Below, piece after piece: positions 18,454-57,043 of a stretch of DNA of 64,000 nucleotides (position 1 is its first letter; every line of letters starts with the position of its first letter). A program made the position numbers and the translations under genes. This DNA comes from Candidatus Undinarchaeota archaeon. GTDB lineage: Archaea; SpSt-1190; JASMDC01. The DNA is taken from contig CAZFHY010000001.1 of NCBI GenBank assembly GCA_964519305.1, positions 250,132-314,131 of the forward strand, read 5' to 3'. The notes under the pieces were generated by a model. It saw only the letters and a list, made by a program, of their open reading frames with translations. It was not told where the DNA came from and searched no databases.

Positions 18454-19631
18454 CCACCGTGTGCGAGGGCCTAGAGGCCCGGGCCCGCGAGGAGCTGTTC
18501 ATCAACATACAGCCCATCCAGGCTGCGGGCAGGCTCACATCCGACGCCATGAAGGCGCTCATCGCGTACGCTGACGGCTATTCAACATGCGACAACTGTC
18601 TCAAGCCCTTCCGTCTAGACAAGATCACAAGGCCGAACATCGCCGGGTTCCATGATGAGCTCGCCCGGTTCATCGGAGTGGACGTGGCGCGCGCGATGCC
18701 GGGTGCCCGGCGAGGGTTCCAGGCGACGTGCCACTCGCTCGTGAGACCCGGTGACGCGGTGCTGCTCTCTTCGCTGTGCCATTACTCGGAGCTGCTGGCG
18801 GTGGAGAGCGCCGGCGGCGTTCCCCGGGAGGTGCCGCTCGACGAGCATAATCTAATCACTGGCGATGCAGTTGCTGCTACGATCGCTGAGGTCGAAAAGG
18901 AGCTAGGTCGTCCCCCGGCGCTGGCCATGATCGACCAGGTCGACTATCTATTTGGAAACAGGCACGACATCGAGGGCGCTGCGAAGGCATGTCGCGAACA
19001 CAACATCCCTATCCTGTGCAACGGCGCTTACACTGTGGGCGTTATGCCCGTGGACGCCAAGGCGCTGGGTGTCGACCTCGTCACAGGTTCGGGGCACAAG
19101 TCCATGGCATCCCCGGCCCCGTCAGGTGTGCTGGGGGCCAACGGCGAGATCGCTGAGAAGGTGTTCCGCACCACCGCTATTGAGACCGACCGCACCAAGC
19201 GAAGGTTCGGTATCAAGGAAGTAGAGCTCCTGGGGTGCACTCTCATGGGGGGCAACATGCTCGCTATGATGGCATCGTTCCCCACTGTATGTGAGCGCGT
19301 CAAGAGCTGGGACGACGAGCTGGCAAAGGTCAACCACTTCTGCGAGCAGTTCATGCGCATCGATGGCAACCGTGTCCTCTCGGAGATGCCTCGCCGCCAC
19401 ACGCTCACCAAGGTGGACTCGACCGGCACGTTCGACAAGGTCGCCCAGACGCATAAGAAGAAGGGATTCTTCCTCACAAAGGAGTTGCGGAACCGTGGTA
19501 TCGTCGGTGTGTTCCCTGGCGCGACGCATGAGTGGAAGCTCAACACCTACGGACTCACATGGGACCAGGTGCGTCACGTGACCGATTCCTTCCTGGAGAT
19601 CGCGGAGAAGTACGGACTGCCCATCAACTAG
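18450..19631 (+). CDS. pscS: O-phosphoseryl-tRNA:Cys-tRNA synthase (SepCysS)
   Basis: INIQPIQAAGRL, DGYSTCDNC, PLP motif GSGHKS, KEVELLGCT, KLNTYGL. Confidence 0.96.
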   Translation: MTTVCEGLEARAREELFINIQPIQAAGRLTSDAMKALIAYADGYSTCDNCLKPFRLDKITRPNIAGFHDELARFIGVDVARAMPGARRGFQATCHSLVRPGDAVLLSSLCHYSELLAVESAGGVPREVPLDEHNLITGDAVAATIAEVEKELGRPPALAMIDQVDYLFGNRHDIEGAAKACREHNIPILCNGAYTVGVMPVDAKALGVDLVTGSGHKSMASPAPSGVLGANGEIAEKVFRTTAIETDRTKRRFGIKEVELLGCTLMGGNMLAMMASFPTVCERVKSWDDELAKVNHFCEQFMRIDGNRVLSEMPRRHTLTKVDSTGTFDKVAQTHKKKGFFLTKELRNRGIVGVFPGATHEWKLNTYGLTWDQVRHVTDSFLEIAEKYGLPIN

Positions 19632-20344
19632 CCTTCGCTCAGTCGTGCGACGATGTCCGCCTCGACGTCGTCACGGTGTTCGCGGATGTAAGTGACCACG
19701 TCCTCCTCCTTGGGACGCAGGGCGTTTGCCACCGGGTAGGCCGGGAGGAATAGGCACAGCGGCTGGTTCCCTTGGTACGAGCCCTTGGTACCCGGAAGCA
19801 CCTTGAGATAGGTACCCAGCAGGAGTCCCATGCGCTGCAGCATCCGCTCCTCGTCCGCCAGCGACAGGTCGTACGCCGGGGTCAGGTAGGTGATTCCATG
19901 GTCATCGTAGAGCTTACGCAGCTCTTCCAATGACGCTGCCATCTGCTCGGGGTACTGCTCCTGTCCCGCGTTCTCACCACCGCAGGCGTGGCCGATACCG
20001 TTCTCCCTGCAGTACGCGATGGTACGTGCGTGCATTGCCAGCTTGCATCCCATGCATACCGGGAACCACGAACGGGTACGTAGAAACTGCCGATACAGGT
20101 TGTCGCGCTGCAGTTCCCACCACAGTGGCCGGACGTCGAGCACCTTGTGGACGATACGGCCCTCGCCCAGACGCCACCTGAGCTCCCGGACCATGTGTCG
20201 GGGCTTGTGCACGAACCGCAGGAGCGGTGTGTCGAACGTTAGGAGGTGGACTGTGTCGAATTTTTCCGCTGCCAGTACCGCGGCTACTGTGGAGTCAACG
20301 CCTCCTGAGAACAGCACTGCAGCCTCTCCCTCGCGCTCGCCCAT
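19628..20344 (-). CDS. QueC-like PP-loop adenylating enzyme A
   Basis: LFSGGVDS, CMGCKLAMH, YPEQM...TPAY, QPLC; lacks the C-terminal QueC Zn motif. Confidence 0.85.
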   Translation of the reverse strand: MGEREGEAAVLFSGGVDSTVAAVLAAEKFDTVHLLTFDTPLLRFVHKPRHMVRELRWRLGEGRIVHKVLDVRPLWWELQRDNLYRQFLRTRSWFPVCMGCKLAMHARTIAYCRENGIGHACGGENAGQEQYPEQMAASLEELRKLYDDHGITYLTPAYDLSLADEERMLQRMGLLLGTYLKVLPGTKGSYQGNQPLCLFLPAYPVANALRPKEEDVVTYIREHRDDVEADIVARLSEG

Positions 20345-20450
20345 GGATAGACGTTGCGAGTGCAAGGCAGCTTTATGTCCCTTTGGGTCGGGCCCCGATC
20401 GAGAGCCGTTAATGCAATGATTTATCAAGCAAGAGCGACTCCACGCATTC

Positions 20451-21194
20451 GTGGCCGAGGACAAGAAGGGTCCGGTGGCGCTGCTCTTCTCGGGCGGCCT
20501 CGACTCGACGACCGCTGCCCTGCGCCTGTCGGAGACGCACGAGCGTGTACACCTGCTGACGTTCTCCCGTGGGTACGGCCACTACTTCCTGGACACGCCC
20601 GGACGCAGATCCGAGGAGCTGCGGAAGGCGGTCGGCGACCGGTTCGAGTACGAGCTCGTCGACATCAAGCCGCTTTTCGAGAAGGTCGTGCTCCAGACAA
20701 TTGTCGCGGACTACAAGAAGTACCGCTCCGGATTCGTGTTCTGCCTGGGGTGCAAAGTATGCATGCACGCAAAGGCGGTCGCATGGTGCCATGAGCACGA
20801 CGTGAAGCTGGTGGCCGACGGTTCCTCGGGGGACACCTCCGTGTTCGTTGAGCAGCGACCCTCGACGCTAAAACTCATCATCGACTTCTACCGTGAGCAC
20901 GGGATCGAGTTCTTCACCCCGGTCTTCGAGCAGACACGAGAGGAGAAGCGCCGTTTCCTGAAGAGCAAGGGTGTCGGTATGGGCACGCGTATAGGTGACC
21001 GGCATGTAGGAGTTCAACCCAAGTGCGTACCCGGCGAACTCTACTACCTTCCGACCGTACTGTTCGGCATCCCGCCCAAACACGAGGACAAGGCCATCGC
21101 CGAGTTCTTCGCCGAGAAGGCTGCCCTGGCACGGGAGTTCCTCGGGCTCGAGGTGGACGAGGGGCCTCAGCCACGCGGTGGGGACACCCGGTAG
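20451..21194 (+). CDS. QueC-like PP-loop adenylating enzyme B
   Basis: LFSGGLDS, CLGCKVCMH, FVEQR...TPVF, QPKC; TTTATCAA 23 nt upstream. Confidence 0.85.
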   Translation: MAEDKKGPVALLFSGGLDSTTAALRLSETHERVHLLTFSRGYGHYFLDTPGRRSEELRKAVGDRFEYELVDIKPLFEKVVLQTIVADYKKYRSGFVFCLGCKVCMHAKAVAWCHEHDVKLVADGSSGDTSVFVEQRPSTLKLIIDFYREHGIEFFTPVFEQTREEKRRFLKSKGVGMGTRIGDRHVGVQPKCVPGELYYLPTVLFGIPPKHEDKAIAEFFAEKAALAREFLGLEVDEGPQPRGGDTR

Positions 21195-22963
21195 AGGGTG
21201 TGCTCGTGCACGTCGCCCACGGCCTTCGCTAGGACGGGTGGGACTGGTACGCGTGCCAACGGCTCCAAAGCGAAGTCCTGACGCATCACCAAGGAAGTCT
21301 TGGCCGTCCCTTGGCTCGTGTCGTAAAGGTATACGCATTCACCGCGTCCCAAGAGCGTCCTCACGTCCCCGTCCATCGTGTCCTCGATACCGCTCAGTCC
21401 AGGATCAGATCCCGGGACCAGGGGATGTCGGCCCCAGAGAGTGCGGGAACGCATAGGCTGGGCGGCGACCACGTAACACCCATCACTCACGAGCGAACGC
21501 CAGTCACTTGCAGTCCTCGTCTCGAGCTCGATTGCGTCACGTATCGGGGCTGAAAGATCGTCCACCGGGTCCGCAAGCGGATAGAGGACGGTCACGAGGA
21601 CCAGGCCTAACACGGCCAGTGCACCGAGCTGTCGGGGATATCGGGCACCGCCGAACATAGCGGCCCACCCAAGCACGAGAACGGGGAGGGCGAGGTGTAC
21701 GGTGCGGAGCGTGGCCCGAGTACTTTCGCCAAGCTCTCCACCGAACAATGGCCCGTAGGCGAAAGGCAGGTGAGCAAGGCCGGAGAGCACGAGAACCGCA
21801 ATTAGATGACCGCGCGAGCGACAGAGTGCTCGCGAGCCTGCTCCGGCAAGCAGAGCGTAGGGCACCATGGCGTTGATCATGTACCGGTGGATGACCGGCG
21901 TGGCGGTCGTGAAGGGCTCATGGAAGAGATAGGGCGTCATGCGAGCTACGAACCACAGGGCTGCCAGTGCGACGAATGGCGAGGGTGTCCGGTACCGAGC
22001 AGCGACACCGAGCACGGCCAGTGCCGTGAACAAGAACGGCTGGAAGTACCCGTCAAGCCAGTAAGAGACGTAATTGAGGTTGTGGAGGACGTAGGTGGGG
22101 CTCATCCGGCGGGATATGTCCATATACCCGAACGTCAGCTCTTGCCACTCCATTGCATATGGGACCAGCAGCGCCAGCGCCACCAGCCACGGGAGCACCG
22201 ACGGCTTGAAGCCCTTGCGTCGGCCCCATAGATAGATGAGCAGTACGGGCAGTGCAGCTACCGGATTCTCCCGGCGCACCGCGATATGGAATCCCAAGGC
22301 CGAGGCGGCAAGCCATCCCAGTGCAGGCCGCTGCGAGCGCACGTGGACCACGGCGGCAAGCACGGCCAGGACCTCTAGTAGCACAGAGGACACTTCGGAC
22401 AGCGCCTTGACGCTGAACCGGACGTGCATCGGTAGGAGAGCGAGAACAAGGGCCGCGGAGAGAGCGACCCGGTCGTCACGGCTCAGCGCACGGGCCAGAA
22501 GATAGGTAAGAGCTACAGTGAGCGTCCCCCCGAGCACGCCGAGCACACGGGGAACAGTGGTGCCGATACCAAGAAGCGATGAGAAGATGGCGAGCACGAA
22601 GGGGTAGCCGCTTGGATAGAACACAGCGTACTGTTGGCATATACTCCGCTCGTCCAGTGGTAGGAATAATGAGAACGGAAGCCGACCTTCTATCATCTCA
22701 CCAGTGGAGCAGAAGCCGTTGAGGCGGTAGATCAACATGCCCTCGGCCTGGTCTGTAAAGAAACCCTCTGACATCCAGGGGATGGGGTGAAAGGGATTGG
22801 CTGCACGTACGGCGAACGCCAGTATAAGAACAAGCAAGAGAGCATCGCGCTCGCGGTATCCACGGGGAAGAAGGACCGCAAACTGCCGCCGAGATGCGAC
22901 CAGGGCCACTACGAGCACCAGCAGGTTCAAGAGGGCTGCTGGCACCAACAGGGGTGACGGCAT
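21167..22963 (-). CDS. GT-C (PMT/ArnT-like) membrane glycosyltransferase, paralogue 1
   Basis: MPSPLLVP start 23 nt after TTTATTAA; many TM helices, GYP, ALLPMHVRFS, RREN, HRYM. Confidence 0.85.
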   Translation of the reverse strand: MPSPLLVPAALLNLLVLVVALVASRRQFAVLLPRGYRERDALLLVLILAFAVRAANPFHPIPWMSEGFFTDQAEGMLIYRLNGFCSTGEMIEGRLPFSLFLPLDERSICQQYAVFYPSGYPFVLAIFSSLLGIGTTVPRVLGVLGGTLTVALTYLLARALSRDDRVALSAALVLALLPMHVRFSVKALSEVSSVLLEVLAVLAAVVHVRSQRPALGWLAASALGFHIAVRRENPVAALPVLLIYLWGRRKGFKPSVLPWLVALALLVPYAMEWQELTFGYMDISRRMSPTYVLHNLNYVSYWLDGYFQPFLFTALAVLGVAARYRTPSPFVALAALWFVARMTPYLFHEPFTTATPVIHRYMINAMVPYALLAGAGSRALCRSRGHLIAVLVLSGLAHLPFAYGPLFGGELGESTRATLRTVHLALPVLVLGWAAMFGGARYPRQLGALAVLGLVLVTVLYPLADPVDDLSAPIRDAIELETRTASDWRSLVSDGCYVVAAQPMRSRTLWGRHPLVPGSDPGLSGIEDTMDGDVRTLLGRGECVYLYDTSQGTAKTSLVMRQDFALEPLARVPVPPVLAKAVGDVHEHTLYRVSPPRG

Positions 22964-23047
22964 ACCTTCTGATGACACTCGCAAATTAATAAAGCGTACC
23001 ATCATCCAAGTAGGGTAGTTACTCGGGCTTGAGGTGGACGGGGCGCC

Positions 23048-24844
23048 TCAGCTCCGTGGCGGGAACACTCGGTAAAGGGCGTGGCCGCGCACGTCGCCCG
23101 CGGCCTCCACTAGGGCGGGCGGGATGGATTCGCGTGCCAGCAGTTCGAGCTTGAAGTCCTGACGCATCACGGAGGACGTCTTGGCCGTCCCCTGGCTCGT
23201 GTCGTAAAGGTATACGCATTCGCCGCGCCCCAGGAGCGTCCTCACGTCCTCGTCCAACGTGGCCTCGATACCGCTCAGTCCGGAATCAGATCCAGGGACC
23301 ACGGGATACCGGCCCCAGAGCATGCGGGAACGCATGGGCTGGGCGGCCGCCACGTAACAACCATCGCCCACGAGCGACCGCCAGTCATCTGCGATCCTCG
23401 TCCCGAGCTCGTTGGCGTCGCGAATCGGTGCTGAAAGATCGTCCACCGGATCCGCAAGCGGGTAGAGGACGGTCACGAGGATCAGACCCGACACGGCCAG
23501 TGCACCGAGCCGGCGGGGATACCGGGCACCACCTAACAGAGCGGCCCATCCGAGCACCAGAACGGGGAGGGCGAGGTGTATGATGCGAAGCAAGGTCCGG
23601 GTCCCCTCAGCGAGCTCGCCACCGAACAACGGTCCATAGGCAAATGGCAGGTGGGCGAGGCCGGATAGCACGAGCACGGCGACTAGGTGACCGCGTGAAC
23701 TACAGAGTGAGCGCGAGCCTGCCCCGGCAAGCAGAGCGTAGGGTACCATAGCGTTGATCATGTACCGGTGGATGACCGGCGTAGCGGTAGTGATAGGCTC
23801 GTGGAGGATGTAGGGCGCCATACGAACTATGAACCACAGGGTAACCAACGCCACGAATGACGAGGGTGCTCTATGAATGGTGGCGACACCGAGCATCGCG
23901 AGCGCTGTAAACAAGAATGGCTGAAAATGACCGTCGAGCCAGTAGGAGACGTAATTGAGGTTGTGCAGGTAGTAAACTGGATTCACTCGGCGGGGGATGT
24001 CCATGTAACCGAACGTCAGTTCGCTCCAATCCATTGCATGGGGGACAAGCAGCGCCAGCGCTACCAGCCATGGGAGCACTGACGGTTTGAATCCCTTGCG
24101 TCGGCCCCACAGATAGATGACCATGATGGGCACCACCGCGAGCGGATTCTCGCGACGCACGGTGATGTGAAGGACCAGGCTCGAGGCGGCCAGCCATCCC
24201 AGTGCGGGCCGCTGCGAGCGCACATGGACCACGGCGGCCAGCACAGCAAGGACCTCGACGAGCACTGAAGATACCTCGGACAGCATCTTGACACCGAACC
24301 TGACATGCATCGGTAAAAGGGCGAGCACCAGGGCCGCCGTGAGAGCCACACGGTAGTCACGGCTCAGCACACGAGCCAGGAAATATGTAAGGGCTACGGT
24401 GAGCGTCCCCCCGAGTACACCGAGCATCCAGGGCGCGGCGCCGCCGAAACCGAGTAGAGACGAGACTATGGCGAGCATGAACGGGTAGCCGCTCGGGTAG
24501 AACACAGCGAACTGTCGACACACATCGCGCTCGCCCATTGGAAGGAACAAGGAGAACGGAAGCCGGTTCTCTACAATCTTACCAAGAGAACAAATCCCGT
24601 TGAGGCGATAGACCACTATACCCTCTGCCTGGTCGCCATAGAAGCCTTCTGCCATCCAATGAAGGGGGCGGAATGGATTGGCTGCGCGTACGGTGAACGC
24701 CAGCAACAGTACAAGCAGGAGGGCATCGCGTTCGCGGCGTCCGCGGGGGACAAGAGCCGCAAACTGTCGTCGAGATGCGACAAGAGCCACTACGAGCACC
24801 AGCAGGTTCAGGAGGGATGCTGGCACCAGCAAGGGCGACGGCAT
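23048..24844 (-). CDS. GT-C membrane glycosyltransferase, paralogue 2
   Basis: Colinear with paralogue 1 and has the same promoter. Confidence 0.85.
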   Translation of the reverse strand: MPSPLLVPASLLNLLVLVVALVASRRQFAALVPRGRRERDALLLVLLLAFTVRAANPFRPLHWMAEGFYGDQAEGIVVYRLNGICSLGKIVENRLPFSLFLPMGERDVCRQFAVFYPSGYPFMLAIVSSLLGFGGAAPWMLGVLGGTLTVALTYFLARVLSRDYRVALTAALVLALLPMHVRFGVKMLSEVSSVLVEVLAVLAAVVHVRSQRPALGWLAASSLVLHITVRRENPLAVVPIMVIYLWGRRKGFKPSVLPWLVALALLVPHAMDWSELTFGYMDIPRRVNPVYYLHNLNYVSYWLDGHFQPFLFTALAMLGVATIHRAPSSFVALVTLWFIVRMAPYILHEPITTATPVIHRYMINAMVPYALLAGAGSRSLCSSRGHLVAVLVLSGLAHLPFAYGPLFGGELAEGTRTLLRIIHLALPVLVLGWAALLGGARYPRRLGALAVSGLILVTVLYPLADPVDDLSAPIRDANELGTRIADDWRSLVGDGCYVAAAQPMRSRMLWGRYPVVPGSDSGLSGIEATLDEDVRTLLGRGECVYLYDTSQGTAKTSSVMRQDFKLELLARESIPPALVEAAGDVRGHALYRVFPPRS

Positions 24845-24962
24845 ACCTGCCGATGACACTCGAACATTAATAAAGCGTACCTCCACACGAGCGTGAGGGC
24901 AGGATGATGTGGTCCTTTCTGAATAACTCTCCCTTGTCCTGAAAAAAAGTTACCGGCTAATA

Positions 24963-26030
24963 CTATCTCAGCAGCCAAGCCAGCGACGGTGGCCAGAATC
25001 TGCAGGCGTTGGATATGTCCGTCTCGTGGGTGCACCAGCACTCGCCGCGGGTGATCTCCTCGCGCACCTGTTTCGCCTTCTCGCTCATCCACACCCGTCT
25101 AAAGTCGTACCCCTCCTCCCGCAGATTGCCCAGAGGTCGGTCCAGCATCTCGCAAGGGTACACCACACCACGTTCGGTGAGCACCGCTTCCAGCAGGCCT
25201 GCGCGGCACGGGGCCACCCGCTCATGCTCGCGGTACGCCCGTGCCACGGCTCGCGAGAGCAGGTCAGGTCGATGACCGAAACCGCGGGGGTACCTACCCT
25301 GCTCGCGTACAAGAGTGAAGGCGGCCTCCACGTCCTCGGGCGACAGACCGAGCACATCCGGATCGCGGGGGTGGGAACGGGCTAGGGTCACCGAGAACGT
25401 AGGTCCGTTCCACGGCGGGCGGGACAGGAGCTGTAGCGTGTCCTGAACGACGTGGACGTTGAGACGAGAGAGGGTCATATTGACAGCTACATCAAGACGT
25501 GGTTCCTCCCGGGCCAGTTCGTTGAGACGCCATCGGGTGCGAAGGAGCTTTGAGTAGGCGCCCTCACCGCGAATGGCGTCGTGCACATCCTCCGGTCCGT
25601 CCAGAGAGAGGTTCACCCGGAGCCGTGCGGGACGACATGCATCGAGCACATCGGACACTGACCGTTCCACGCGATCAGGGAGCAGACCGTTCGTCGGGAG
25701 GTTTATGACCTCTGTGCTGCACGACCGGACGAAAGGCTCTACCAGCCCGGCCAGATCGTCGCGGAGCGTGGGTTCACCACCACTGAGCAAGAGGAGCGGG
25801 AGCCGGGGAATAGACGCCGCGATACGCTCGACCTCGTCCGGAGTGAGCTCCTTGGACGTGTCGGCCGCGTCAGTCTCACGCCAGTAGAAGCAGTGAGGAC
25901 ATCGTGCGTTGCATCGTGCGGTGACGAAGAAGGTGAGGTACACAGGCCACGGTGTGGTCAGGAGCCGCGAGTAACCGAGCGCGAGGTAGCGTAGGCCAAG
26001 TGTACGCCGGGTCAGTGCCTCACCGAGCAT
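24963..26030 (-). CDS. Radical SAM protein with a SPASM/Twitch-type C-terminus
   Basis: CNARCPHC, SGGEP, PCRAG...VYPCE...LGNLR...CWC. Confidence 0.92.
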   Translation of the reverse strand: MLGEALTRRTLGLRYLALGYSRLLTTPWPVYLTFFVTARCNARCPHCFYWRETDAADTSKELTPDEVERIAASIPRLPLLLLSGGEPTLRDDLAGLVEPFVRSCSTEVINLPTNGLLPDRVERSVSDVLDACRPARLRVNLSLDGPEDVHDAIRGEGAYSKLLRTRWRLNELAREEPRLDVAVNMTLSRLNVHVVQDTLQLLSRPPWNGPTFSVTLARSHPRDPDVLGLSPEDVEAAFTLVREQGRYPRGFGHRPDLLSRAVARAYREHERVAPCRAGLLEAVLTERGVVYPCEMLDRPLGNLREEGYDFRRVWMSEKAKQVREEITRGECWCTHETDISNACRFWPPSLAWLLR

Positions 26031-26183
26031 TGAGATGGTTGTGTGCCGCGATCATTTAAACCTGTTGTCGGCGCCCGACCAATGCACTGCTGGTAACGTC
26101 GCCTGATGCCGACTACGCGCTGCACTGCACCCGGTGCGCCCGTGTGGATAAGCTTTTATGTGTGCGATGCGGGCAGAGAAAGC

Positions 26184-27326
26184 GTGAGAAACGCTCTCGC
26201 CCTGTCCGTGGTATTAGTGATGCTCACGGCCCTTGCCGTTGATACCATCACGGTCACAGGGGATATTTCGTTCCACCCCGATCCCCGAGGCCTTTGGATC
26301 GCGCCGGCCGAGTATGAGTACCCGGACGGACAACCGGATTGCGAGGCCAATGACAAGGGATCCTGTCTTGCGCTCGATGACTGCACTTGGGTGGTCGACC
26401 CACGCGGCCCTCCGCCCTCGGGCGAACCTCCGTACTATTGCGTGATCGCCAATCCACCCCATGTATCCCCTCCGCCACTTCCGGACATGATCGGCGTCCG
26501 ACTCGATGGGATTGACCTCACGAACCCGGCATCCGTGTTCGCCATCCTGGTCAGATATGACACTCAAGGTCCGTCAAAGACCGTCGTGGATGGTGGAATG
26601 CTGGGACAGGGTCAGGATGTAACGGAGATACAGACCCCCTTCCTTCCCTACAGTCCCGGTCGCGTGGACGTGTCGATCTGCCTCAATACGACATCCTGCC
26701 CCTCGTGGGACGAGGACTGCTCTACCTGTCGTTCGGAACGGCTAATGATCCACTGGATCGACGGCGAGAACGGAGGACCAAGCAATCTAAGTGCCATCCC
26801 GGCCAGCACATGGTTCACGGTGCCAATACGGGGCGATCCGTCGCTCTGGGAGGATGAGGTTGAGCGAGTGAGGGCGACCTTCAATGTGATGGCGCTCACA
26901 TCTCAGTGGTGGACGCGATGCCAGCTCTTGGGTATGGATGATGAGAACTCAGTGACCGTCGACCTCTGCCAAGAAGGAGGTTCACTCACGCCTGACGTCT
27001 GCCAGCCCAGGGAACCGACGGGCATGGAAGGCCAGGAGGTCGGGCTCGTCATCACTCCGCCATCAGGTGGATGGCGTGCAGGTCGGTACGAGGTCATGTG
27101 CAACGTGTCGGTCAAGAACTATGTCGATGTCACGACTAACCATATCCAGGCCGGTTTCGATGTGTTGCGACAGGTCCCACCTAGAGGGAAGGGTGGAACG
27201 GTCATGACCGTGTTCATTGTCCTCGGACTTGCCGTGGCAGTGATTATTTGGCGACAGGACGAGGGACCGAGTGATCCTGTGCTCGTCCCGAAAGCTGATG
27301 TGAATACCAAACGCAAGCGCCGTTAG
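26184..27326 (+). CDS. Cys-rich exported protein with a C-terminal membrane anchor
   Basis: Signal-like MRNALALSVVLVMLTALA, multiple Cys, C-terminal TM plus KRKRR; GTG 25 nt after TTTTAT. Confidence 0.75.
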   Translation: MRNALALSVVLVMLTALAVDTITVTGDISFHPDPRGLWIAPAEYEYPDGQPDCEANDKGSCLALDDCTWVVDPRGPPPSGEPPYYCVIANPPHVSPPPLPDMIGVRLDGIDLTNPASVFAILVRYDTQGPSKTVVDGGMLGQGQDVTEIQTPFLPYSPGRVDVSICLNTTSCPSWDEDCSTCRSERLMIHWIDGENGGPSNLSAIPASTWFTVPIRGDPSLWEDEVERVRATFNVMALTSQWWTRCQLLGMDDENSVTVDLCQEGGSLTPDVCQPREPTGMEGQEVGLVITPPSGGWRAGRYEVMCNVSVKNYVDVTTNHIQAGFDVLRQVPPRGKGGTVMTVFIVLGLAVAVIIWRQDEGPSDPVLVPKADVNTKRKRR

Positions 27327-29968: not shown

Positions 29969-30004
29969 GGCCGACAAGTTCTCGACTCCGCAACATTATT
30001 ATGA

Positions 30005-37257: not shown

Positions 37258-37274
37258 GGCGATGGGAGAAGCCT

Positions 37275-37292
37275 GAACCTTCAAATAGGCTT
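37275..37292 (-). promoter_or_regulatory. Degenerate copy of the palindromic promoter element
   Basis: GAACCT-TCAAAT-AGGCTT, at the same spacing from the ATG. Confidence 0.6.
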
Positions 37293-37889: not shown

Positions 37890-38075
37890 TTTAATATTTT
37901 TCTATCTTCGTCGGAGGCCGTAACGCCCTTATAATTTGTTATAACCGTCGTTACGTGGAGTATAGTGCTTATTACATATTTAATGCTAAGTACTACTCAT
38001 AAATTTAGATTAATAGCTTATTAAGACGCACTAATGCACTATTCTCGCTTTAGAGAATCCTTAATTCTCAATACC
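37890..38075. other. AT-rich non-coding island with several palindromes
   Basis: Sharp drop in GC; TTATAA-N4-TTATAA, TTAATA-GCT-TATTAA, and an 11-bp imperfect inverted repeat at 37958-37968 / 38036-38046. Confidence 0.6.
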
Positions 38076-40027: not shown

Positions 40028-40050
40028 GCGCTGGCATCGTAGTAGCAATT

Positions 40051-40058: not shown

Positions 40059-40080
40059 CAAGCTTATGGCGGTTGAAGCG

Positions 40081-44955: not shown

Positions 44956-45109
44956 GCTCGTGCCGGATTTTGTGCCATTCCCCCTATAAAAACCTTTCCC
45001 CGGGAACCGTCGTGCGTACCGGCAACTAACGCAGAACAAGGAGCAGGCAGGAACGCATTATTGAAGAGCTCAAGTAGTTCTATATAGCTATCCCCTATAG
45101 GAATGTCCG

Positions 45110-46207: not shown

Positions 46208-47007
46208 TGGAACGGGCAGTGCTAGTTTCCCGCGCACCGCTCCTCGACACGCTCGACTGGACCGGGTACGACCGGCTCTACCTGGGCAACGGATACTGCC
46301 AACGGCTCATCCCCACGCCCGACCAGCTCAGGTCCGCCCTGGACCGGGCGGACGACGCACATATCCCGCTCACCCTTGTCACTCCGCCCGTAACCGATAA
46401 TGGGCTCGACGATCTTGGCCCCGTCCTTGATCTCCTACCAAAAGGTGCAGAGGTTGTGGCCAACGACTGGGGTGTCATCGACCTTGTCGCCGAGGCTGGA
46501 CGGCTCCAGCCGGTTGTCGGCGGCCTTCTTCACAAGCAGAAGCGCGGACCGCGCATCATGATGGCGAAGGACCTTCTCCCTCCAGAGGCATGGGATCGAT
46601 TTCGCACGTCGAACATGGACGTGGTCGCTATGCGCGAGATCCTGGCCTTGTACGGGATCAAACGGGTCGAGGTCGAGAATCCCTTCCAAGGCGTGTCGCT
46701 TGACCTTGCCGGGGGCGAAAAACCACTCTTTGGCTCGCTCCACCATCCCTATGTCTGCGTCACTATGTCGAGATACTGCCTATTAGCACTGGCCTCGACC
46801 AGGCAAGGCCTGCCAGAATGGGGCATCTACCCCTGCTCCCGTATGTGTACAAATTCCAGTTTCCAGCTCGACCATCCGACCATGGGCGTCCCACTCTACC
46901 TCAAGGGATGTGCCGTATTCGTAAAGAACGATGCACTCCCCGGTGATAAGGAGCTGAAGGACATGGGCATCGACCGGACAGTGGTATCGCAGATACCACC
47001 TGCATGA
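46207..47007 (+). CDS. U32-like partner subunit (UbiV-like), copy 2
   Basis: LYLGNGYCQRLIP, TLVTP, VANDWG, MSRYC, PCSRMC; TGATG coupling. Confidence 0.8.
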   Translation: MERAVLVSRAPLLDTLDWTGYDRLYLGNGYCQRLIPTPDQLRSALDRADDAHIPLTLVTPPVTDNGLDDLGPVLDLLPKGAEVVANDWGVIDLVAEAGRLQPVVGGLLHKQKRGPRIMMAKDLLPPEAWDRFRTSNMDVVAMREILALYGIKRVEVENPFQGVSLDLAGGEKPLFGSLHHPYVCVTMSRYCLLALASTRQGLPEWGIYPCSRMCTNSSFQLDHPTMGVPLYLKGCAVFVKNDALPGDKELKDMGIDRTVVSQIPPA

Positions 47008-50439: not shown

Positions 50440-50898
50440 TCACGGGGCGCGGTCCCGGGCAACAGCGACCGCCGCGGCGATGATGAGGACCCACTCGATC
50501 GTAGCCATTGAATCGGCAAGGGGGATACCTACGGTCCGCCACGAGAAGGGCCAGAGGAGTATGAAGTGGTGAGGCCTGGCCCACGGGTATAGGAGCGAGT
50601 CGATGAGGATGTTGGACATGGCCCCTACGTACAGAAGCCCGTAAGCCTTCCACAGGTCCCGGTCTATGAAGGACGCTGCCACCAGACAGAGGAACAGTGC
50701 ACCGACGGGCGTGTGGAGGAAGAACGATACGGCCATCGCTACCGTGGCGCCACGTGCGACGAGGGCCGCTAATGCGATGAAGAGCTGCAGGTCAGGCAGG
50801 AGCGCGCCGAACATGAGCACCCAGCGGTCACGGCGTTCAATCCCCAGGAGACGGGTCAGGATTATGGCCAGTGACATATGGACTATGAGATCAGGCAT
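50440..50898 (-). CDS. YdjM-like membrane metal-dependent hydrolase
   Basis: MPDLIVH, GALLPDL, LHTP, SNILID (His replaced by Asn), LLWPFS. Confidence 0.75.
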   Translation of the reverse strand: MPDLIVHMSLAIILTRLLGIERRDRWVLMFGALLPDLQLFIALAALVARGATVAMAVSFFLHTPVGALFLCLVAASFIDRDLWKAYGLLYVGAMSNILIDSLLYPWARPHHFILLWPFSWRTVGIPLADSMATIEWVLIIAAAVAVARDRAP

Positions 50899-51355
50899 TG
50901 TCCTCACCCCCCAGCGGCACCAGACCCGAGGGCGCAGCAGCGGCGACGGAGCGGCGGGCAGCATCGCGCCAGGCCCAGAGGAGGAGGAGCACGCCCAATG
51001 TGTTCCAGATAAGGAACATGAACCGGCGGCCGAGCACGTGGAGACCGGTGGCCTCGATGCGCCCTTGGGCATACACCCCGTTCACTGTGACTGCATCGCC
51101 TGACCTGAGCTGAGTGAAGTTGCCGTACACGTCCACCCGCCAGTTGTCCATGATGTCGGTTATGAGCACGAAGTGCCCGGGGACCACCTCTTGTGCGAGC
51201 CCGAAGAAGTAGCCCTGACGACGCTCGGCATCGAAGAAAGGGAAGTTCTGAGGCCAACGTTCCTCGATGACCAGAGCATTGTGGTACATAGAGGCCAGGA
51301 TGACGATGAGCCCTAAGATGAGTGGCAGCGGTCTCGGGTCGCGGACACCGTACAT
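50891..51355 (-). CDS. Membrane protein with a probable extracellular OB-fold
   Basis: TM, then beta-rich GDAVTVNGVY, then TM; overlaps the start of the downstream gene. Confidence 0.7.
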   Translation of the reverse strand: MYGVRDPRPLPLILGLIVILASMYHNALVIEERWPQNFPFFDAERRQGYFFGLAQEVVPGHFVLITDIMDNWRVDVYGNFTQLRSGDAVTVNGVYAQGRIEATGLHVLGRRFMFLIWNTLGVLLLLWAWRDAARRSVAAAAPSGLVPLGGEDNA

Positions 51356-51400: not shown

Positions 51401-52555
51401 TCAAGGCAGAGCGCCCGCGTCACGAAGTATCGCATCCTCTCGCTCGAACACCGCCTCGCGCCCATAAGGAGATGCCGCTTCGCGGTTCACCGCGCCCATC
51501 CTGGCTGCGAGCTCAGGATTATCGGCCACACGGGCCAAAGCGCTCCGCAGCTTTCGAGGTGACCGCGGTTGCACAAGGAAGCCCCCTTCATGAGGGAGCA
51601 CGTTCGCGATGCCCTCGACGTCGGTGGCCACCACAGGCAGCCCCGCGCCCATTGCCTCGATGAGGGCGAAGGGCATCCCCTCCTCCTCGGAGGCCATAGC
51701 GAACACGTCGGCCGCGGCGAGCACATCAGGCACTTCACCGGATGGGACCGCGCCGAGAAAAGTGGCGTCCGCGCCTTCTTTTTCAGCTAGGGAAACGAGG
51801 GCTTCGCGCTCCGGACCGTCGCCGCACGCGACCAGACGTATGCCCGAAAGCCCGGCCACGGCGCGGACCAGATCGTCCACCCGCTTGATCTCGGCCAACC
51901 GGCCAACGAACACGACCAGACGACCGTCCTCGGGAATACCGTGGCGCTCTGCCAGCCGTTTCCGCGCTGCTGCCCGGTCCGGTGCTTTTTTAGGGAGGTC
52001 GACCCAGTTGGGGAGCACCTCGACCTGGTCCGGGCGGGCGCCCTGGGCTTCGAGCCGCTGACGCATCAGGTCTGTGCTTGTGATTATCCGGTCCGAGTGC
52101 CGTACGACCATCCTGTACACCTGTGAGACGAACGGGCCAAGGAGAGGGGACCGGTGACGGCGCATCTGACCCATCCAATCGTACTCCAGGGAAAGTACAA
52201 CCGGGGGGTGTGAGCTGACACTGGAGAGACCCAGCGCTACGGGGACGATGCCCACGGGCCCGTACACACGGACAGCGGTGAGGGTGGACGCAAGACGACG
52301 CACGGCCGCTGCTCCGCTGAGCACGAAACCAGGGTGCGAACGGCCCACGGGCAGGTGGATAACACCTTCCCCGAGCTCGTCGCTCATGTCCCGCTCGTCC
52401 GCGCTGAGTAGGATCACGCGGTCGTACAGCTTCCGGTAATGGTCGACCCGCGCGCGTACAAGCTTGTCGAACACGCCACGCTCGCATCCCTCCTCGAGAC
52501 GACAGTCGGTGGAGTACACCAGGAGCAGTGTCGAAGTCGACTCCATACCGGCCAT
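51401..52555 (-). CDS. GT4 (GT-B) glycosyltransferase
   Basis: LPNWVD, FVGRLAEIKR, EGMPFALIEAMGAGLPVV. Confidence 0.93.
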   Translation of the reverse strand: MAGMESTSTLLLVYSTDCRLEEGCERGVFDKLVRARVDHYRKLYDRVILLSADERDMSDELGEGVIHLPVGRSHPGFVLSGAAAVRRLASTLTAVRVYGPVGIVPVALGLSSVSSHPPVVLSLEYDWMGQMRRHRSPLLGPFVSQVYRMVVRHSDRIITSTDLMRQRLEAQGARPDQVEVLPNWVDLPKKAPDRAAARKRLAERHGIPEDGRLVVFVGRLAEIKRVDDLVRAVAGLSGIRLVACGDGPEREALVSLAEKEGADATFLGAVPSGEVPDVLAAADVFAMASEEEGMPFALIEAMGAGLPVVATDVEGIANVLPHEGGFLVQPRSPRKLRSALARVADNPELAARMGAVNREAASPYGREAVFEREDAILRDAGALP

Positions 52556-52577
52556 CACGGTCACCTGTCCCACGAAG

Positions 52578-53757: not shown

Positions 53758-54492
53758 ATGAAGATAGCGTTCGACGAGTTCCATAAGGACAAGAAGTACT
53801 TCTCCATCGACGATGATGACCAGAACGGGTATGAACAGCTGGGCGATTTCCTTAAAGGCAAGGGTATCGAGTGCGTCCAGTCCACGAATCCGCTTACGTC
53901 CATCCCCGCTGATGTGGACGTGCTCGTCATCCCATTCCCCAAGCGAAGGTTCGACGGGTCCGAGGTCAACGAGATCACCGCCTTCGTTAAAGATCGGGGC
54001 AAGGGACTGCTGATGCTCTCCGAGTGGGGCGGTATCTTCGACAACGTCGAGAACCTCAACCAGCTGGCAATAAACTTCGAGATCAAGTTCAATCCCGACC
54101 GCGTGTGCGACTGGGAGAACCGGATCCAGATCCCGTTCAAGTCCAAGGCCCACGCATTCTACATCAAGGGTTTCTCGCAGCACTACCCGTTCACCAAGGA
54201 CCTCAAGGAGCTTGTGTGCATATCGGGCAGTTCCCTCAAACCAGCTAATCAGGGCATGATCGCGGCCTGGGCGGGCGAGCGCTCATGGAGCGACGAGGAC
54301 GGCGACTCTTCCTATGACGAGGGGGAAGCGTTCGGGTACGTGCCTATTGTCACTGCTAACGTTTGCGGTAACGCCCAGGGACGTGTGGTCTGCTGTGGTG
54401 ATGCCTCTCTCCTGGCCAACGCCCAGTTTAAGGAGTCCGAGCACCAGAAGTTCGCCCACTCCCTCTTCCAGTGGCTTGGCAAGGAGCTTTGA
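53758..54492 (+). CDS. GldG/IFT52 (GIFT, DUF4350-like) domain protein
   Basis: IAFDEFH, DVLVIPFP, GLLMLSEWGG, NLNQL, GRVVCCGD, FQWL. Confidence 0.8.
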   Translation: MKIAFDEFHKDKKYFSIDDDDQNGYEQLGDFLKGKGIECVQSTNPLTSIPADVDVLVIPFPKRRFDGSEVNEITAFVKDRGKGLLMLSEWGGIFDNVENLNQLAINFEIKFNPDRVCDWENRIQIPFKSKAHAFYIKGFSQHYPFTKDLKELVCISGSSLKPANQGMIAAWAGERSWSDEDGDSSYDEGEAFGYVPIVTANVCGNAQGRVVCCGDASLLANAQFKESEHQKFAHSLFQWLGKEL

Positions 54493-54503
54493 GCGCACTA
54501 TCC

Positions 54504-55124: not shown

Positions 55125-55376
55125 TCAGGGAGAGAGGACCGCGTGAGCCACGAGGCCGAGAGTGAGGACCACGGAACCGAGCACGATGGCGACAGCCATG
55201 TTACCCTTCTCCAGCTCCTTCATCTCCTCGAGACCCGGTGTAGCGGCGTCGAATATCTTGAACGTTGCTGGGATGCAAAGGCCGAGAGCGATACCGCCCA
55301 CGAGCACCCATGCGATCGCCAGGACCATCTGCGTGACGGTCTGTACTATGTCAATATTTCCCACAACCATAATCAT
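55125..55376 (-). CDS. DUF350 family small membrane protein
   Basis: FDAATPG...ELEKGNMAVAIVLG. Confidence 0.85.
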   Translation of the reverse strand: MIMVVGNIDIVQTVTQMVLAIAWVLVGGIALGLCIPATFKIFDAATPGLEEMKELEKGNMAVAIVLGSVVLTLGLVAHAVLSP

Positions 55377-55504
55377 GACCTCTTGGGCTTGAGGGATAGA
55401 TATCCTTTAAAGCCTTTTGCTATCCGACCGAGAACCGGTTCTATTCAACATATAACGTTTGGGTGACCTCTGCACCTAGCGACACCGACGCAGATGGTGA
55501 CCTC

Positions 55505-57043
55505 ATGGGACTTCCATTCCTCGTACCCCGTGTCCTTTCCCTCGCGCTCGTTCTCTTAGTCGCACTCCTCGTCCACCTGCGCCGGGATATCAAGACCTCC
55601 CTGCCCCGCACGACCAAGGACCATCGCCTCCTCTTGGCAGTGGTGCTCGTGCTCGGCCTCGTGGTCCGGCTCAACGGCCCCTTCGCCCACGCGGTGTATA
55701 TGGATGAGTGGAGCTATCTCGAGGGCGCCCGCACCCTCCTATTCACGGGGCGACATGAGCTCTGTCGGGACGGCATCGTGCTCCAATGCACTGCGACCGG
55801 GGGAACGCCCAATCCAACTGGCTACCCCTTGGCGGCCGCTATGACGTTCGCCCTGGCGGGAGTGGGAGCGGGCCAGGCGATGGCGCTCAATCTGGGTGCA
55901 GGCATCGTTACCATCATTGCGGTCTACCTCCTCGCCCTTGTCCTCCTTCGTCGTCCTTGGGCCGCATTGGCCGCCGCCATGCTCATGGCGACGCTCCCCC
56001 TCCACGTGCGCCACTCGTCCACCGCCGGGACCGAGGCTGTCTCCCTCCTCATGGTAACTGTGGCGCTTTTTTGTGCCGCTCTCGTCCCCATGATCCCGCG
56101 CAGGAAAACCCTTGGAGCGGCCATCCTCGCAGCCACCCTCGCGGTGTCCGTACGACCCGAGAACCTCCTCGTCCTCCCTCTGGCCGCTCTCTTCGCAGCG
56201 CAAGGGCCGGGCCGTCGCGTGGTCCGCAGCCCGATACCCGTGTTGGCGACAATGGTCCTCGTGCTGCCCTTGGTCAGCAGACGAGCGGGGGCCGCTGAAG
56301 CATGGTCGTTCTCCCTGGCGTACGTGACGGGAAAGATCAATTACCTTTACTTCTGGGCAGGGCTCACCACCCACCTCACCCCGCTCTTCCACACACCCGT
56401 GCTCGCCCTCCTGGCTTTAGGTGGTGTATGGGAGCTCCGACGCAGGGACCGTACGACCCTGGGACTACTTGCAGTGTGGTTCGGATCGTTCTTCGTCGTG
56501 TATCTGGCATACGTGCTCTCCGCTTCCTATCGCTTCATGTTAACATGCTATCCCCCCGTTCTCCTCCTGGCCGGTCTGGGTGCGGAGGGGATCGCTAATC
56601 GAGCAGGTGGATCAAGAGGTGGCGTCCTCGCTTTGGCCGCCCTCCTCGTGGCGGTCGTGCCCGCCTTACCCACAGGCCTCGATCCGGGGGACCAGCATCG
56701 TGTGTTCCAGCCTGAGGTGGACTTCCTCGTAGCCGCGTCACGGGCCCTCCCCGCGGGATGCACCATCGTAACGTTCAATCCCTTCCTGGCGACATTCGCT
56801 ACGGACCGTCCGGCCTTGGATATAGGTCAGGGAGAGGTCGCCCTTGACCGGTCCAGCCGGGGAGAATGCTTGGCGCTCTTCGAGGACTCATTCTGCACCT
56901 GGCGGCCCAATGAGAATTCCGATCCCGGACGCTGCGATTTCTACCATCTGAACTTCGAGCTGGAGGAAGTGCGTAGTGCAATCAACTCACGAACGAAGAC
57001 AACGGTCGGCCTTTCCCTCCTGAACACGAGGAAGGAAAGCTAG
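55505..57043 (+). CDS. GT-C membrane glycosyltransferase (GT-C 9, more distant homologue)
   Basis: YMDEWSY, CRDGIVLQC, TGYP, LPLHVRHS, RPEN, YRFM; GGTGA SD upstream. Confidence 0.85.
   Translation: MGLPFLVPRVLSLALVLLVALLVHLRRDIKTSLPRTTKDHRLLLAVVLVLGLVVRLNGPFAHAVYMDEWSYLEGARTLLFTGRHELCRDGIVLQCTATGGTPNPTGYPLAAAMTFALAGVGAGQAMALNLGAGIVTIIAVYLLALVLLRRPWAALAAAMLMATLPLHVRHSSTAGTEAVSLLMVTVALFCAALVPMIPRRKTLGAAILAATLAVSVRPENLLVLPLAALFAAQGPGRRVVRSPIPVLATMVLVLPLVSRRAGAAEAWSFSLAYVTGKINYLYFWAGLTTHLTPLFHTPVLALLALGGVWELRRRDRTTLGLLAVWFGSFFVVYLAYVLSASYRFMLTCYPPVLLLAGLGAEGIANRAGGSRGGVLALAALLVAVVPALPTGLDPGDQHRVFQPEVDFLVAASRALPAGCTIVTFNPFLATFATDRPALDIGQGEVALDRSSRGECLALFEDSFCTWRPNENSDPGRCDFYHLNFELEEVRSAINSRTKTTVGLSLLNTRKES

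Follow-up and report, generated by a model that had tools for sequence, protein, structure and literature searches.

U32 protein pairs, radical SAM enzymes and GT-C membrane proteins in a variable gene island of an Undinarchaeota genome

Glycosyltransferases of the ArnT/PMT type (GT-C) use sugars carried on polyprenyl phosphate and work on the outer side of the membrane. In the Arn pathway the GT-C, ArnT, is preceded by the aminotransferase ArnB, and Gtr-type systems combine a GT2 polyprenyl-phosphate sugar synthase, a flippase and a GT-C. Enzymes such as GenK, BtrN, AprD4 and TobZ tailor sugars in aminoglycoside pathways; both GT-C glycosylation from lipid carriers and sugar tailoring by radical S-adenosylmethionine (SAM) enzymes are known kinds of system. 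U32 proteins of known function are few (UbiU/V, TrhP and RlhA); UbiU-UbiV act on a polyprenylated phenol, and hopanoids and archaeal lipids are among the substrates methylated by B12-binding radical SAM enzymes. Here we analyse a 64,000-nt stretch (hereinafter the window) of a Candidatus Undinarchaeota archaeon, corresponding to C1:250132-314131 of a 42-contig, 3.63-Mb archaeal genome (hereinafter designated G000; C-numbers denote its contigs and L-numbers denote loci from other genomes or metagenomes). Positions 19628-57043 of the window, here called the island, hold 30 open reading frames (ORFs) taken as genes, among them nine GT-C-like membrane proteins, two U32 proteins, each with a partner protein, and one B12-binding and two SPASM-type radical SAM enzymes. 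We observe that the U32-partner pair is recurrently placed with B12/SPASM radical SAM enzymes and GT-Cs in archaea and at least four bacterial phyla, an association that we have not found described.

The system with which the U32 pairs are best compared is UbiU-UbiV. The island carries two such pairs, with families assigned here and below by a Pfam scan with gathering scores and by NCBIfam equivalog cut-offs:

38891..40048, minus strand: U32 protein a (U32a); Peptidase_U32, 110.1 bits; 22-nt overlap with its partner gene
38061..38912, minus strand: U32 partner A, a UbiV-like four-Cys protein; no Pfam model; invariant C36, C193, C212 and C216
45110..46207, plus strand: U32 protein b (U32b); Peptidase_U32, 99.9 bits; 35% identity to U32a
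46204..47007, plus strand: U32 partner B; 44% identity to partner A; same four Cys; 4-nt overlap with U32b

As in UbiU-UbiV, the genes of the two chains are adjacent and usually overlapping. The partner, a protein of about 270 residues that belongs to no Pfam family, abuts a U32 gene in 10 of 10 loci of G000 (12 U32 genes and 7 partner genes genome-wide) and the genome of its sister species (G001), and 54 same-strand adjacent U32-partner pairs, with gaps of -159 to +105 nt, were counted over 80 loci in other genomes. Across 26 sequences of many phyla, none of the four partner cysteines varies. The 4Fe-4S cluster ligands of UbiV are C39, C180, C193 and C197, the first of them far upstream, in a CXnCX12CX3C motif (PMC6747719); the partner, with a distant N-terminal cysteine followed by a C...C-X3-C group, has a spacing that resembles the motif given there (PMC6747719). 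The U32 chain likewise contains a CX6C element (C202/C209), but its invariant cysteines number seven (C202, C209, C267, C299, C302, C367 and C372) compared with the four reported for UbiU (PMC6747719), making a second metal site possible in this seven-Cys subfamily.

The predicted structure of partner A (AlphaFold2 model; predicted local distance difference test score, pLDDT, 90.5) is a TIM-like barrel, whose best match by template-modelling (TM) score is 5d88, the only solved U32 protein (TM 0.43/0.48, probability 1.00, E 2e-3, rank 7 by E-value); the remaining structural matches are generic barrels. By sequence, the partner aligns with the U32 family at its N-terminus only (hhalign, 76% probability) and has no Pfam U32 match. 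When U32a and its partner are modelled together, the predicted complex scores 0.89, compared with 0.01 for the best of three controls; 58 of 80 solved complexes and 2 of 110 mismatched pairs attain that mark, counts that are approximate because custom alignments were used. The runs have at least 92% of contacts in common, with a partner pLDDT of at least 85, and the predicted interface involves stretches near C209 and C267 of U32a and near C193 of the partner. Sequence searches gave no solved structure related to the partner, which makes it unlikely that the score comes from a memorised structure.

Other features set the pairs apart from UbiU-UbiV. U32a is far under the NCBIfam equivalog cut-offs for TrhP (90.6, cut-off 534) and UbiU (80.4, cut-off 440), the UbiV score is 12.7 (cut-off 275), and the pair stands beside radical SAM and GT-C genes rather than quinone genes; no SCP2/UbiT or quinone-pathway family was matched by Pfam among the 30 ORFs, to which the search for UbiT was confined. 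All named proteins among 101 database relatives of the partner are called 'hypothetical protein'. A partner homologue with 35% identity, DEACI_0969, is present in the cultured Acididesulfobacillus acetoxydans. Judging from sequence and predicted structures, the U32-partner pairs look like O2-independent hydroxylases of the UbiU-UbiV kind that fall outside that family, and we found no description of the partner family, which lacks a Pfam model, in its pairing with a distinct seven-Cys U32 subfamily.

To place the pairs in a wider context, the partner family was scanned in one genome per species, which gave 259 relatives; the best 80 loci were analysed, 4 of them from the sister species, leaving 76 foreign loci, in which the island's families were sought with profiles made from G000's own paralogues. 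These 76 loci contain U32 (52 loci), B12 radical SAM (23), SPASM (19), GT2 (14), GT-C (10), GT4 (7) and DUF362 (5) genes, with PP-loop, AsnB and methyltransferase genes at 2 each; the GT-C count rests on a 26-paralogue profile, a single-sequence phmmer search (3/80) understating it. Radical SAM genes occur at 29 of the 76, and a GT-C is present at 9 of these 29 versus 1 of the 47 others (Fisher p 5e-4, with related genomes being non-independent). Single-strand cassettes that unite a U32 pair, radical SAM and GT-C genes were observed in Omnitrophota, Planctomycetota, Gemmatimonadota and a deltaproteobacterium. In L073 (Omnitrophica) the order on one strand is SPASM, SPASM, U32, partner, SPASM, B12, PP-loop, B12, a DegT/EryC1 aminotransferase and, just after it, two GT-Cs; L059 reads B12, an unassigned ORF, B12, SPASM, U32, partner, three B12, SPASM, B12, GT-C, and L089 (Planctomycetia) reads U32, partner, B12, GT4, an unassigned ORF, SPASM, GT-C, each again on a single strand. 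Further clear single-strand cassettes are L082, L087, L090, L080, L069 and L072. No description of a cassette of a U32 pair, B12/SPASM radical SAM enzymes and a GT-C was found in open-access full texts and bioRxiv.

A partner tree (n=88; a quick version, midpoint-rooted, with several long branches) contains a 48-row clade of ordinary genomic contexts, 43 rows without and 5 with radical SAM neighbours, supported by a Shimodaira-Hasegawa-like approximate likelihood-ratio value (SH-aLRT) of 97. All 7 partners of G000 lie outside this clade, among rows with radical SAM/GT-C contexts, in three groups, one of which includes a Nanoarchaeota sequence. Among 41 related genomes the partner occurs only in G000 and G001, and in none of the 15 same-class relatives (0.6-1.2 Mb).

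The association also recurs within G000 itself. A module at C2:33-45 kb contains SPASM, U32, partner, a GT-C of the 720-residue type described below, B12 and GT-C genes. At C4:164-178 kb, SPASM, U32 and U32 genes are followed by U32, partner, GT-C and GT-C on one strand and then by another U32; the partner at C4 belongs to a different branch of the tree, and the order of U32, partner, GT-C, GT-C is the same. Smaller modules of these families lie on C5, C6, C8, C13 and C16. In permutation tests, U32 genes are near radical SAM genes at 5/8 loci (expected 1.46, p 0.007, collapsed loci), radical SAM genes near GT-Cs at 12/28 (expected 5.66, p 0.005) and GT2/GT4 genes near GT-Cs at 8/16 (expected 3.13, p 0.004), and all three proximities keep p values of 0.02-0.04 when the window is excluded.

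The GT-Cs of the island invite comparison with the Arn pathway and the three-component Gtr systems. They are listed here with the island's GT2:

21167..23005, minus strand: GT-C 1 (ArnT/PMT_2 type); PMT_2, 35.6 bits; loop-1 motif SE
23048..24886, minus strand: GT-C 2; PMT_2, 28.6 bits; 80% identity to GT-C 1; loop-1 motif AE
28976..29977, minus strand: GT2, candidate lipid-linked sugar synthase; Glycos_transf_2, 105.5 bits; about 4 hydrophobic segments, residues 248-303
30005..31768, minus strand: GT-C 3; PMT_2, 27.1 bits; loop-1 motif DD
31875..33638, minus strand: GT-C 4; PMT_2, 28.0 bits; 75% identity to GT-C 3; loop-1 motif DD
33685..35445, minus strand: GT-C 5; PMT_2, 36.5 bits; loop-1 motif DE
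35494..37284, minus strand: GT-C 6, the modelled copy; PMT_2, 49.5 bits; loop-1 motif DE
40951..42687, minus strand: GT-C 7; PMT_2, 40.8 bits; loop-1 motif DE; absent from the sister species
47014..49176, minus strand: ninth, divergent GT-C-like membrane protein of 720 residues; no Pfam match; hhalign to the GT-C family
55463..57043, plus strand: GT-C 8, a distant paralogue; PMT_2, 40.5 bits; 27-30% identity to GT-C 1-7; loop-1 motif DE

Eight of the nine candidates (27.1-49.5 bits) exceed the PMT_2 gathering score of 26.1 bits, and the ninth joins them through its 11-member paralogue family, which matches the GT-C family in hhalign with 98.5% probability (E 1.4e-15); the original prediction, made from the letters of the window, had named nine such proteins, and this number stands. 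A profile of 21 GT-C sequences matches ArnT 5ezm (E 3e-6). The AlphaFold2 model of GT-C 6 (pLDDT 84.7, predicted TM score 0.88; one copy of nine modelled) retrieves ArnT 5f15 first (Foldseek E 5.2e-10, TM 0.49/0.53) and ArnT 5ezm second (E 4.4e-9, TM 0.52/0.56), with STT3, EmbA/B/C, PglB, ALG12 and Pmt4 among the later matches. The GT-C fold, which had likewise been predicted, is thus confirmed by modelling for the copy at 35494-37284. An acidic DE or DD motif in the first extracytoplasmic loop, which we take to be the defining mark of the ArnT/PMT_2 group, occurs in 6 of the 8 copies from the window that were aligned, the ninth copy being outside the alignment.

GT-C 1-7 form one paralogue group (40-80% identity), and much of the clustering is, to judge from the sequence identities of the pairs 1/2 (80%), 3/4 (75%) and 5/6 (53%), tandem duplication. 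The ratio of non-synonymous to synonymous substitution (dN/dS) between duplicates is 0.17-0.24 (GT-C 1 versus 2, 0.20), indicating purifying selection, and the 3/4 and 5/6 pairs diverge most around residues 400-500. GT-C 1 and GT-C 2, whose loop-1 motifs read SE and AE and which are nonetheless under purifying selection, may have altered chemistry or a non-catalytic role. With 44 PMT_2 matches genome-wide, 40 of them above the cut-off, the lineage is generally GT-C-rich; nine GT-Cs in 37 kb, compared with 55 GT-C-like genes in 3.63 Mb, exceed chance.

Besides these PMT_2 matches and the preference for ArnT by both profile and fold, the island shares with the Arn/Gtr systems a GT2 (best NCBIfam match MftF, 108 bits versus a cut-off of 280) that has membrane helices at its C-terminus and lies just downstream of four GT-Cs, and the DegT aminotransferase that precedes the GT-Cs of L073 recalls ArnB. 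It differs from them in having nine GT-Cs instead of one, in the U32, radical SAM and PP-loop proteins that those systems lack, and in that the window gave no match to a flippase of the GtrA/ArnEF type, a formyltransferase or a deformylase, the small membrane protein at 50440-51072 being unassigned; lipid A, the target of ArnT, does not exist in archaea. AglB-dependent N-glycosylation is similar in using lipid-linked sugars and a transferase of the GT-C fold, but the STT3 family was not matched among the 30 ORFs, and an STT3 candidate lies on another contig (C13:51008-51658).

The radical SAM enzymes, together with the GT4, resemble the sugar-tailoring part of aminoglycoside pathways:

24963..26030, minus strand: radical SAM/SPASM enzyme 1; Radical_SAM 57.7, SPASM 25.0 bits; 91% identical in the sister species
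27323..28822, minus strand: B12-binding radical SAM enzyme; B12-binding 54.0, Radical_SAM 51.3 bits; not at the sister locus
51401..52573, minus strand: GT4 glycosyltransferase; Glycos_transf_1, 116.9 bits
52528..53709, plus strand: radical SAM/SPASM enzyme 2; Radical_SAM 56.1, SPASM 31.3 bits

In both settings, B12 and SPASM/twitch radical SAM enzymes, a carbamoyltransferase, DegT and GT4 occur beside glycosyltransferases. The likeness extends to weak NCBIfam matches to AprD4 (54.6 bits) and BlsE (36.6 bits), far under the cut-offs of 500 and 400. The difference lies in the final transferases, which here are membrane GT-Cs, so that the product would be attached outside the cell rather than released as a small molecule. 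G000 contains ten paralogues of NodU/CmcH-type carbamoyltransferases (Carbam_trans_N/C), several of them by GT-C, B12 radical SAM, PP-loop or U32 loci (sites include C4:132498-134189, C16:46759-48462, C5:82950-84686 and C2:120651-122420, plus six), and the family is found in the foreign loci L033, L066 and L079 as well. Neighbours of these kinds (DegT, carbamoyltransferase, GT2 and GT4) suggest that the substrates are carbohydrates.

Five further enzymes of the island belong to families that recur at fewer of the foreign loci:

19628..20464, minus strand: PP-loop ATPase A (YcfA/QueC-like); QueC, 26.9 bits; SGGxDS; start probably about 40 codons further in
20451..21194, plus strand: PP-loop ATPase B; 31% identity to its paralogue A; 93% identity to the sister-species copy
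40066..40944, plus strand: class I SAM methyltransferase with an N-terminal Trm112p-like zinc ribbon; Methyltransf_11 61.2, Trm112p 24.1 bits
42773..44437, plus strand: AsnB-type glutamine amidotransferase; Asn_synthase 218.2, GATase_7 139.8 bits
49279..50436, plus strand: DUF362 with a 2x[4Fe-4S] ferredoxin domain, candidate electron donor; DUF362 183.7, Fer4 32.8 bits

With these, the whole enzyme inventory that the original prediction had read from the window (two PP-loop ATPases, two U32/partner pairs, two SPASM and one B12 radical SAM enzymes, AsnB, methyltransferase, GT2, GT4 and DUF362-ferredoxin) is accounted for by Pfam, save for the partners, which have no Pfam family. Its reading of the soluble enzymes as other than housekeeping proteins is borne out for the U32, radical SAM and PP-loop proteins, none of which comes near any NCBIfam equivalog cut-off (the best match of the B12 radical SAM enzyme, ApyD, reaches 120 bits versus 750), and not for AsnB, to which we return below. 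The notion that the former three are housekeeping orthologues acting on tRNA, rRNA or quinones was rejected, all their equivalog scores being far under the cut-offs.

Both PP-loop proteins have weak QueC/DUF7411 matches and an invariant SGGxDS motif, and among solved structures the one most closely related to PP-loop A is YcfA (9kq6, E 1e-13, about 170 residues covered). YcfA is an adenylating, thioamide-forming enzyme of 6-thioguanine synthesis that works with the pyridoxal-phosphate (PLP) enzyme YcfC (PMC12494993). A resembling arrangement is seen elsewhere in the PP-loop family's fusion to a class-V aminotransferase-fold domain in L109 (9992-11917) and its position behind such a protein in L104 (5266-7213). 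In the window, the gene tail to tail with PP-loop A, with a 4-nt overlap, is also of the class-V aminotransferase-fold class, namely SepCysS (18450-19631, plus strand, 547 bits). The resemblance to YcfA is limited to those 170 residues or so and the adjoining PLP enzyme scores as a bona fide SepCysS, with SepRS (514.6 bits) present at C1:432479-434032; a YcfA/YcfC-like pairing of PP-loop A and SepCysS is possible and is not adopted here. Neither SepCysS nor SepRS was found in the 98%-complete sister genome.

Metagenome contigs anchored on the PP-loop family comprise 41 loci, 17 with a strong family match, 11 of which are at least 6 kb long. Those 11 contain carbamoyltransferases (5), strong B12 radical SAM matches (>300 bits; 2) and GT-Cs (2, with PMT/PMT_2 confirmed in L109); two 98-residue 'GT-C' matches in L100 and L101 were dropped as too short.

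The other genes of the island, together with the large protein that follows it, are:

26106..27326, plus strand: acidic 406-residue protein with 14 Cys, candidate surface protein; no Pfam/NCBIfam match; isoelectric point 4.5; hydrophobic at about 30 and about 363
37301..37864, minus strand: lineage-specific 187-residue protein (unk187), between partner A and GT-C 6; 96% identical in the sister species
44479..45039, minus strand: 186-residue protein, no family match; 92% identical in the sister species
50440..51072, minus strand: small membrane protein; about 4 hydrophobic segments; no family match at E<=1
53758..54492, plus strand: DUF4350/ABC_transp_aux (GIFT-like) protein; Pfam; 14 paralogues in the genome
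54471..55034, plus strand: DUF6125 protein, 134.4 bits
57755..62146, plus strand: 1463-residue surface protein (VWA, CARDB, immunoglobulin (Ig)-like), candidate glycan acceptor, beyond the island; Pfam; 92% identical in the sister species

Seven of the 30 ORFs match no Pfam or NCBIfam family. One is unk187, for which a search of 5.8 billion proteins returned just 2 clusters; the protein at 50440-51072, previously read as a membrane hydrolase, has no match that would confirm that label. In the 1463-residue protein, hydrophobic stretches lie near residues 8 and 1371. Because genes are defined here by the longest ORF, their starts are uncertain, and several divergent starts overlap. In divergent pairs, annotated starts are 17 nt apart (40048/40066) or overlap (20451/20464 and 52528/52573), which suggests either that translation of PP-loop A, SPASM 2 and perhaps U32a in fact begins further in or that the transcripts are leaderless. 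The ORF at 55143-55466 is probably not a gene, as its identity in the sister species is 69%, compared with 80-97% for adjoining genes. The left flank of the island is ordinary (transcription factor TFB, a molybdate-type ABC transporter, MoeA, NAD kinase, aconitase and lipoate ligase), a lactate permease lies on the right, and G+C content is flat across the window at about 0.60. G000 has 99.83% completeness and 4.29% contamination (CheckM-type figures), and the archaeal small-subunit rRNA model scores 1508 bits with its 16S-tRNA-23S operon. The public read sets listed as possible sources of this DNA are 8 DNA runs from 2 studies, with none of RNA among them. At 3.63 Mb, with its only close relative in the collection searched at 3.8 Mb and all 15 same-class relatives searched at 0.6-1.2 Mb, it is a free-living-sized genome inside a tiny-genome DPANN class, which is odd in itself.

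Several secreted or membrane proteins without a family also lie in or near the island: 11412-13613 (minus strand, 733 residues), 15799-17757 (plus strand, 652 residues) and 57040-57939 (minus strand, 299 residues). Pro/Thr-rich stretches occur in the 733-residue protein, as a long linker, and in the 299-residue protein, while the 652-residue protein is an internally duplicated multi-helix membrane protein; all three are possible O-glycosylation targets. In the DUF4350/GIFT-like family (53758-54492 and 14610-15320), one copy is weakly similar to the OST48 N-terminus (19.3 bits, cut-off 36).

How might these parts work together? We propose that the island is a modular, fast-evolving, O2-independent toolkit to build and tailor surface glycoconjugates, a reading that in our judgement has an even chance of being correct. 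According to this proposal, GT2 and GT4 would produce a lipid-linked sugar, which would be modified in the cytoplasm: the U32 pairs would hydroxylate it, the B12 radical SAM enzyme would C-methylate or rearrange it, the SPASM enzymes would oxidise or epimerise it, AsnB would amidate it and the methyltransferase would alter it further. The PP-loop ATPases would activate a carbonyl by adenylation, and DUF362-ferredoxin could supply electrons to the tailoring enzymes. The original prediction that specialised GT-Cs serve different acceptors is, for the nine copies, a conjecture. Outside the membrane, the products would finally be transferred by the diverged GT-C paralogues to surface acceptors, for which the 1463-residue VWA/CARDB/Ig protein (57755-62146), the acidic 14-Cys protein (26106-27326) and the secreted 733-residue protein (11412-13613) are candidates. 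A more specific version, in which the U32-partner pairs would be a third class of O2-independent Fe-S hydroxylase, acting on a sugar or polyprenyl-linked glycan instead of a quinone or an RNA base, within a cross-domain anaerobic glycan-tailoring toolkit that also includes B12 and SPASM radical SAM enzymes, YcfA-like PP-loop ATPases and carbamoyltransferases and that feeds GT-Cs, is put forward tentatively, as less likely than not.

Several observations weigh against the toolkit reading or narrow it, beginning with the structure of the island. The strand switches 14 times in 30 genes; in the reading's favour, the longest same-strand run has 9 genes (U32a, partner, unk187, GT-C 6, 5, 4 and 3, GT2 and the B12 radical SAM enzyme), with gaps of -22 to 196 nt. 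In the sister species, 83-90% nucleotide identity extends over 35513-40954, 42675-62144, 24988-26077 and 20395-21218. Elsewhere, one 52%-identical GT-C replaces GT-C 1 and 2, one 56%-identical GT-C replaces the block of 406-residue protein, B12 radical SAM enzyme, GT2 and GT-C 3-5, and GT-C 7 is missing, as is the block of 652-residue membrane protein, SepCysS and PP-loop A. Four GT-Cs and, in addition, the divergent copy are accordingly found at the sister locus, from which the B12 radical SAM enzyme, GT2, 406-residue protein and PP-loop A are missing. This synteny reveals a conserved core beside hypervariable GT-C arrays and, together with the strand structure, rules out one fixed 37-kb operon-like system; the original prediction of a single system across the 37 kb is not supported. 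On our reading, its parts form a toolkit that different loci and species have reshuffled, rather than an obligatory pathway of 30 genes.

The enzymes and their neighbourhoods raise points of the same sign. The loop-1 motif of GT-C 1 and GT-C 2 is without its first Asp. Neither a nucleotide-sugar epimerase/dehydratase nor a flippase family was matched among the 30 ORFs by Pfam, an absence that, with that of STT3/AglB, had been remarked on originally and is upheld. AsnB exceeds the cut-off of the asparagine synthase model TIGR01536 (403.8 versus 267.1), making a housekeeping role conceivable on sequence grounds; that model also takes in glycan amidotransferases. A U32 or partner neighbour occurs at 0 of the 41 PP-loop metagenome loci; the PP-loop genes, placed in the same loose toolkit by their other neighbours, are tied to U32 pairs only via L066 and L073. 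Within G000, U32 genes are near GT-Cs at 3/8 loci (expected 1.61, p 0.22), or at 2/7 (p 0.41) with the window excluded. Of the families expected to co-occur elsewhere, several do, including in the bacterial, operon-like L073; the U32-GT-C proximity in G000 does not stand out.

In other genomes, 47 of the 76 foreign loci have the partner without a radical SAM gene; these are mostly from Thermodesulfobacteriota, Dehalococcoidia, Bathyarchaeia and Hadarchaeota and present ordinary contexts, with Ham1, DnaJ, lipoyl ligase, an NtrY-type histidine kinase and electron-transfer flavoprotein (ETF) as common neighbours; the relatives from Thermodesulfobacteriota and Dehalococcoidia are not counted in favour of the reading. 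The bacteria with cassettes have many GT-Cs overall, 7-29 PMT_2 matches in genomes of 1.3-2.4 Mb: if the background frequency of a GT-C within 10 kb is assumed to be 0.20-0.31, then 9/29 is unremarkable (binomial p 0.11-0.57), and if it is assumed to be 0.10-0.15, 9/29 is unlikely (p 0.002-0.02). PqqD and NTP_transf_5 in some bacterial cassettes point to peptide substrates. Lastly, the organism, a marine archaeon, is uncultured.

Much of this would be expected if unrelated modules were juxtaposed by chance, such that a family-rich genome and tandem duplication of GT-Cs mimic one system without any common pathway. The raw material is plentiful, with 55 GT-C-like, 47 B12/SPASM radical SAM and 12 U32 genes in 3.63 Mb, and the U32-GT-C proximity, the strand switches, the large indels between sister species and the presence of SepCysS, a translation enzyme, in the same indel as PP-loop A are all in its favour. 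We nonetheless consider this explanation unlikely, because three proximities rise above the permutation expectation even when the window is left out, single-strand cassettes of U32 pair, radical SAM and GT-C genes are found in several bacterial groups, and the order of U32, partner, GT-C and GT-C appears again at C4 with a partner from another branch of the tree.

A second alternative accepts a common pathway and changes its substrate: in a scheme akin to the maturation of ribosomally synthesised and post-translationally modified peptides (RiPPs), the radical SAM enzymes and U32 pair would modify residues of a peptide or secreted protein, AsnB and the PP-loop proteins would form amides or thioamides, and the GT-Cs would O-glycosylate the exported product. 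PqqD lies beside SPASM genes in L070, L076 and L090, NTP_transf_5 occurs in L076, L089 and L090, the best NCBIfam matches of the radical SAM enzymes include the peptide maturases ApyD (120 bits) and mycofactocin maturase (63 bits), all far under the cut-offs, the closest solved relative of PP-loop A forms thioamides, and Cys-rich or Pro/Thr-linker secreted proteins lie in and by the island. Against this, profiles of PqqD (from 3 cassette copies), NTP_transf_5 and 'u6' are unmatched in G000 six-frame ORFs of at least 50 residues, no precursor peptide was identified, AsnB scores 403.8 bits as an asparagine synthase versus 157.4 with the lasso cyclase model (cut-off 525), and the DegT, carbamoyltransferase, GT2 and GT4 neighbours fit sugars better, which together render peptide maturation quite improbable. 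Least probable of all, and in our view highly doubtful, is that the substrate tailored by the soluble enzymes is a membrane lipid, or the polyprenyl carrier itself, and not a sugar: the B12 radical SAM enzyme does match HpnJ (99.7 bits), the TIGR04072 lipid biosynthesis B12-binding/radical SAM model (91.2) and HpnR (42.5), both SPASM enzymes weakly match the tetraether synthase Tes (34-36 bits), and the characterised U32 heterodimer has a lipid-soluble substrate (PMC6747719), but these scores are far under cut-offs of 360-650, no SCP2/UbiT-like lipid-binding protein, prenyltransferase or lipid synthase was found among the 30 ORFs, and the sugar-enzyme neighbours speak against it.

The toolkit reading raises the question of whether strict anaerobes hydroxylate and methylate the sugars, or other molecules, of their envelopes without O2. 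If its more specific version is true, strict anaerobes, among them a 3.6-Mb archaeon placed in the tiny-genome DPANN lineages, would have a surface-sugar chemistry without an aerobic counterpart. The rapid gain and loss of GT-C paralogues between the sister species fits diversifying surface structures and points to surface diversification like that of O-antigen loci, which would bear on how cells are recognised by viruses and by partner cells in oxygen-deficient seawater.

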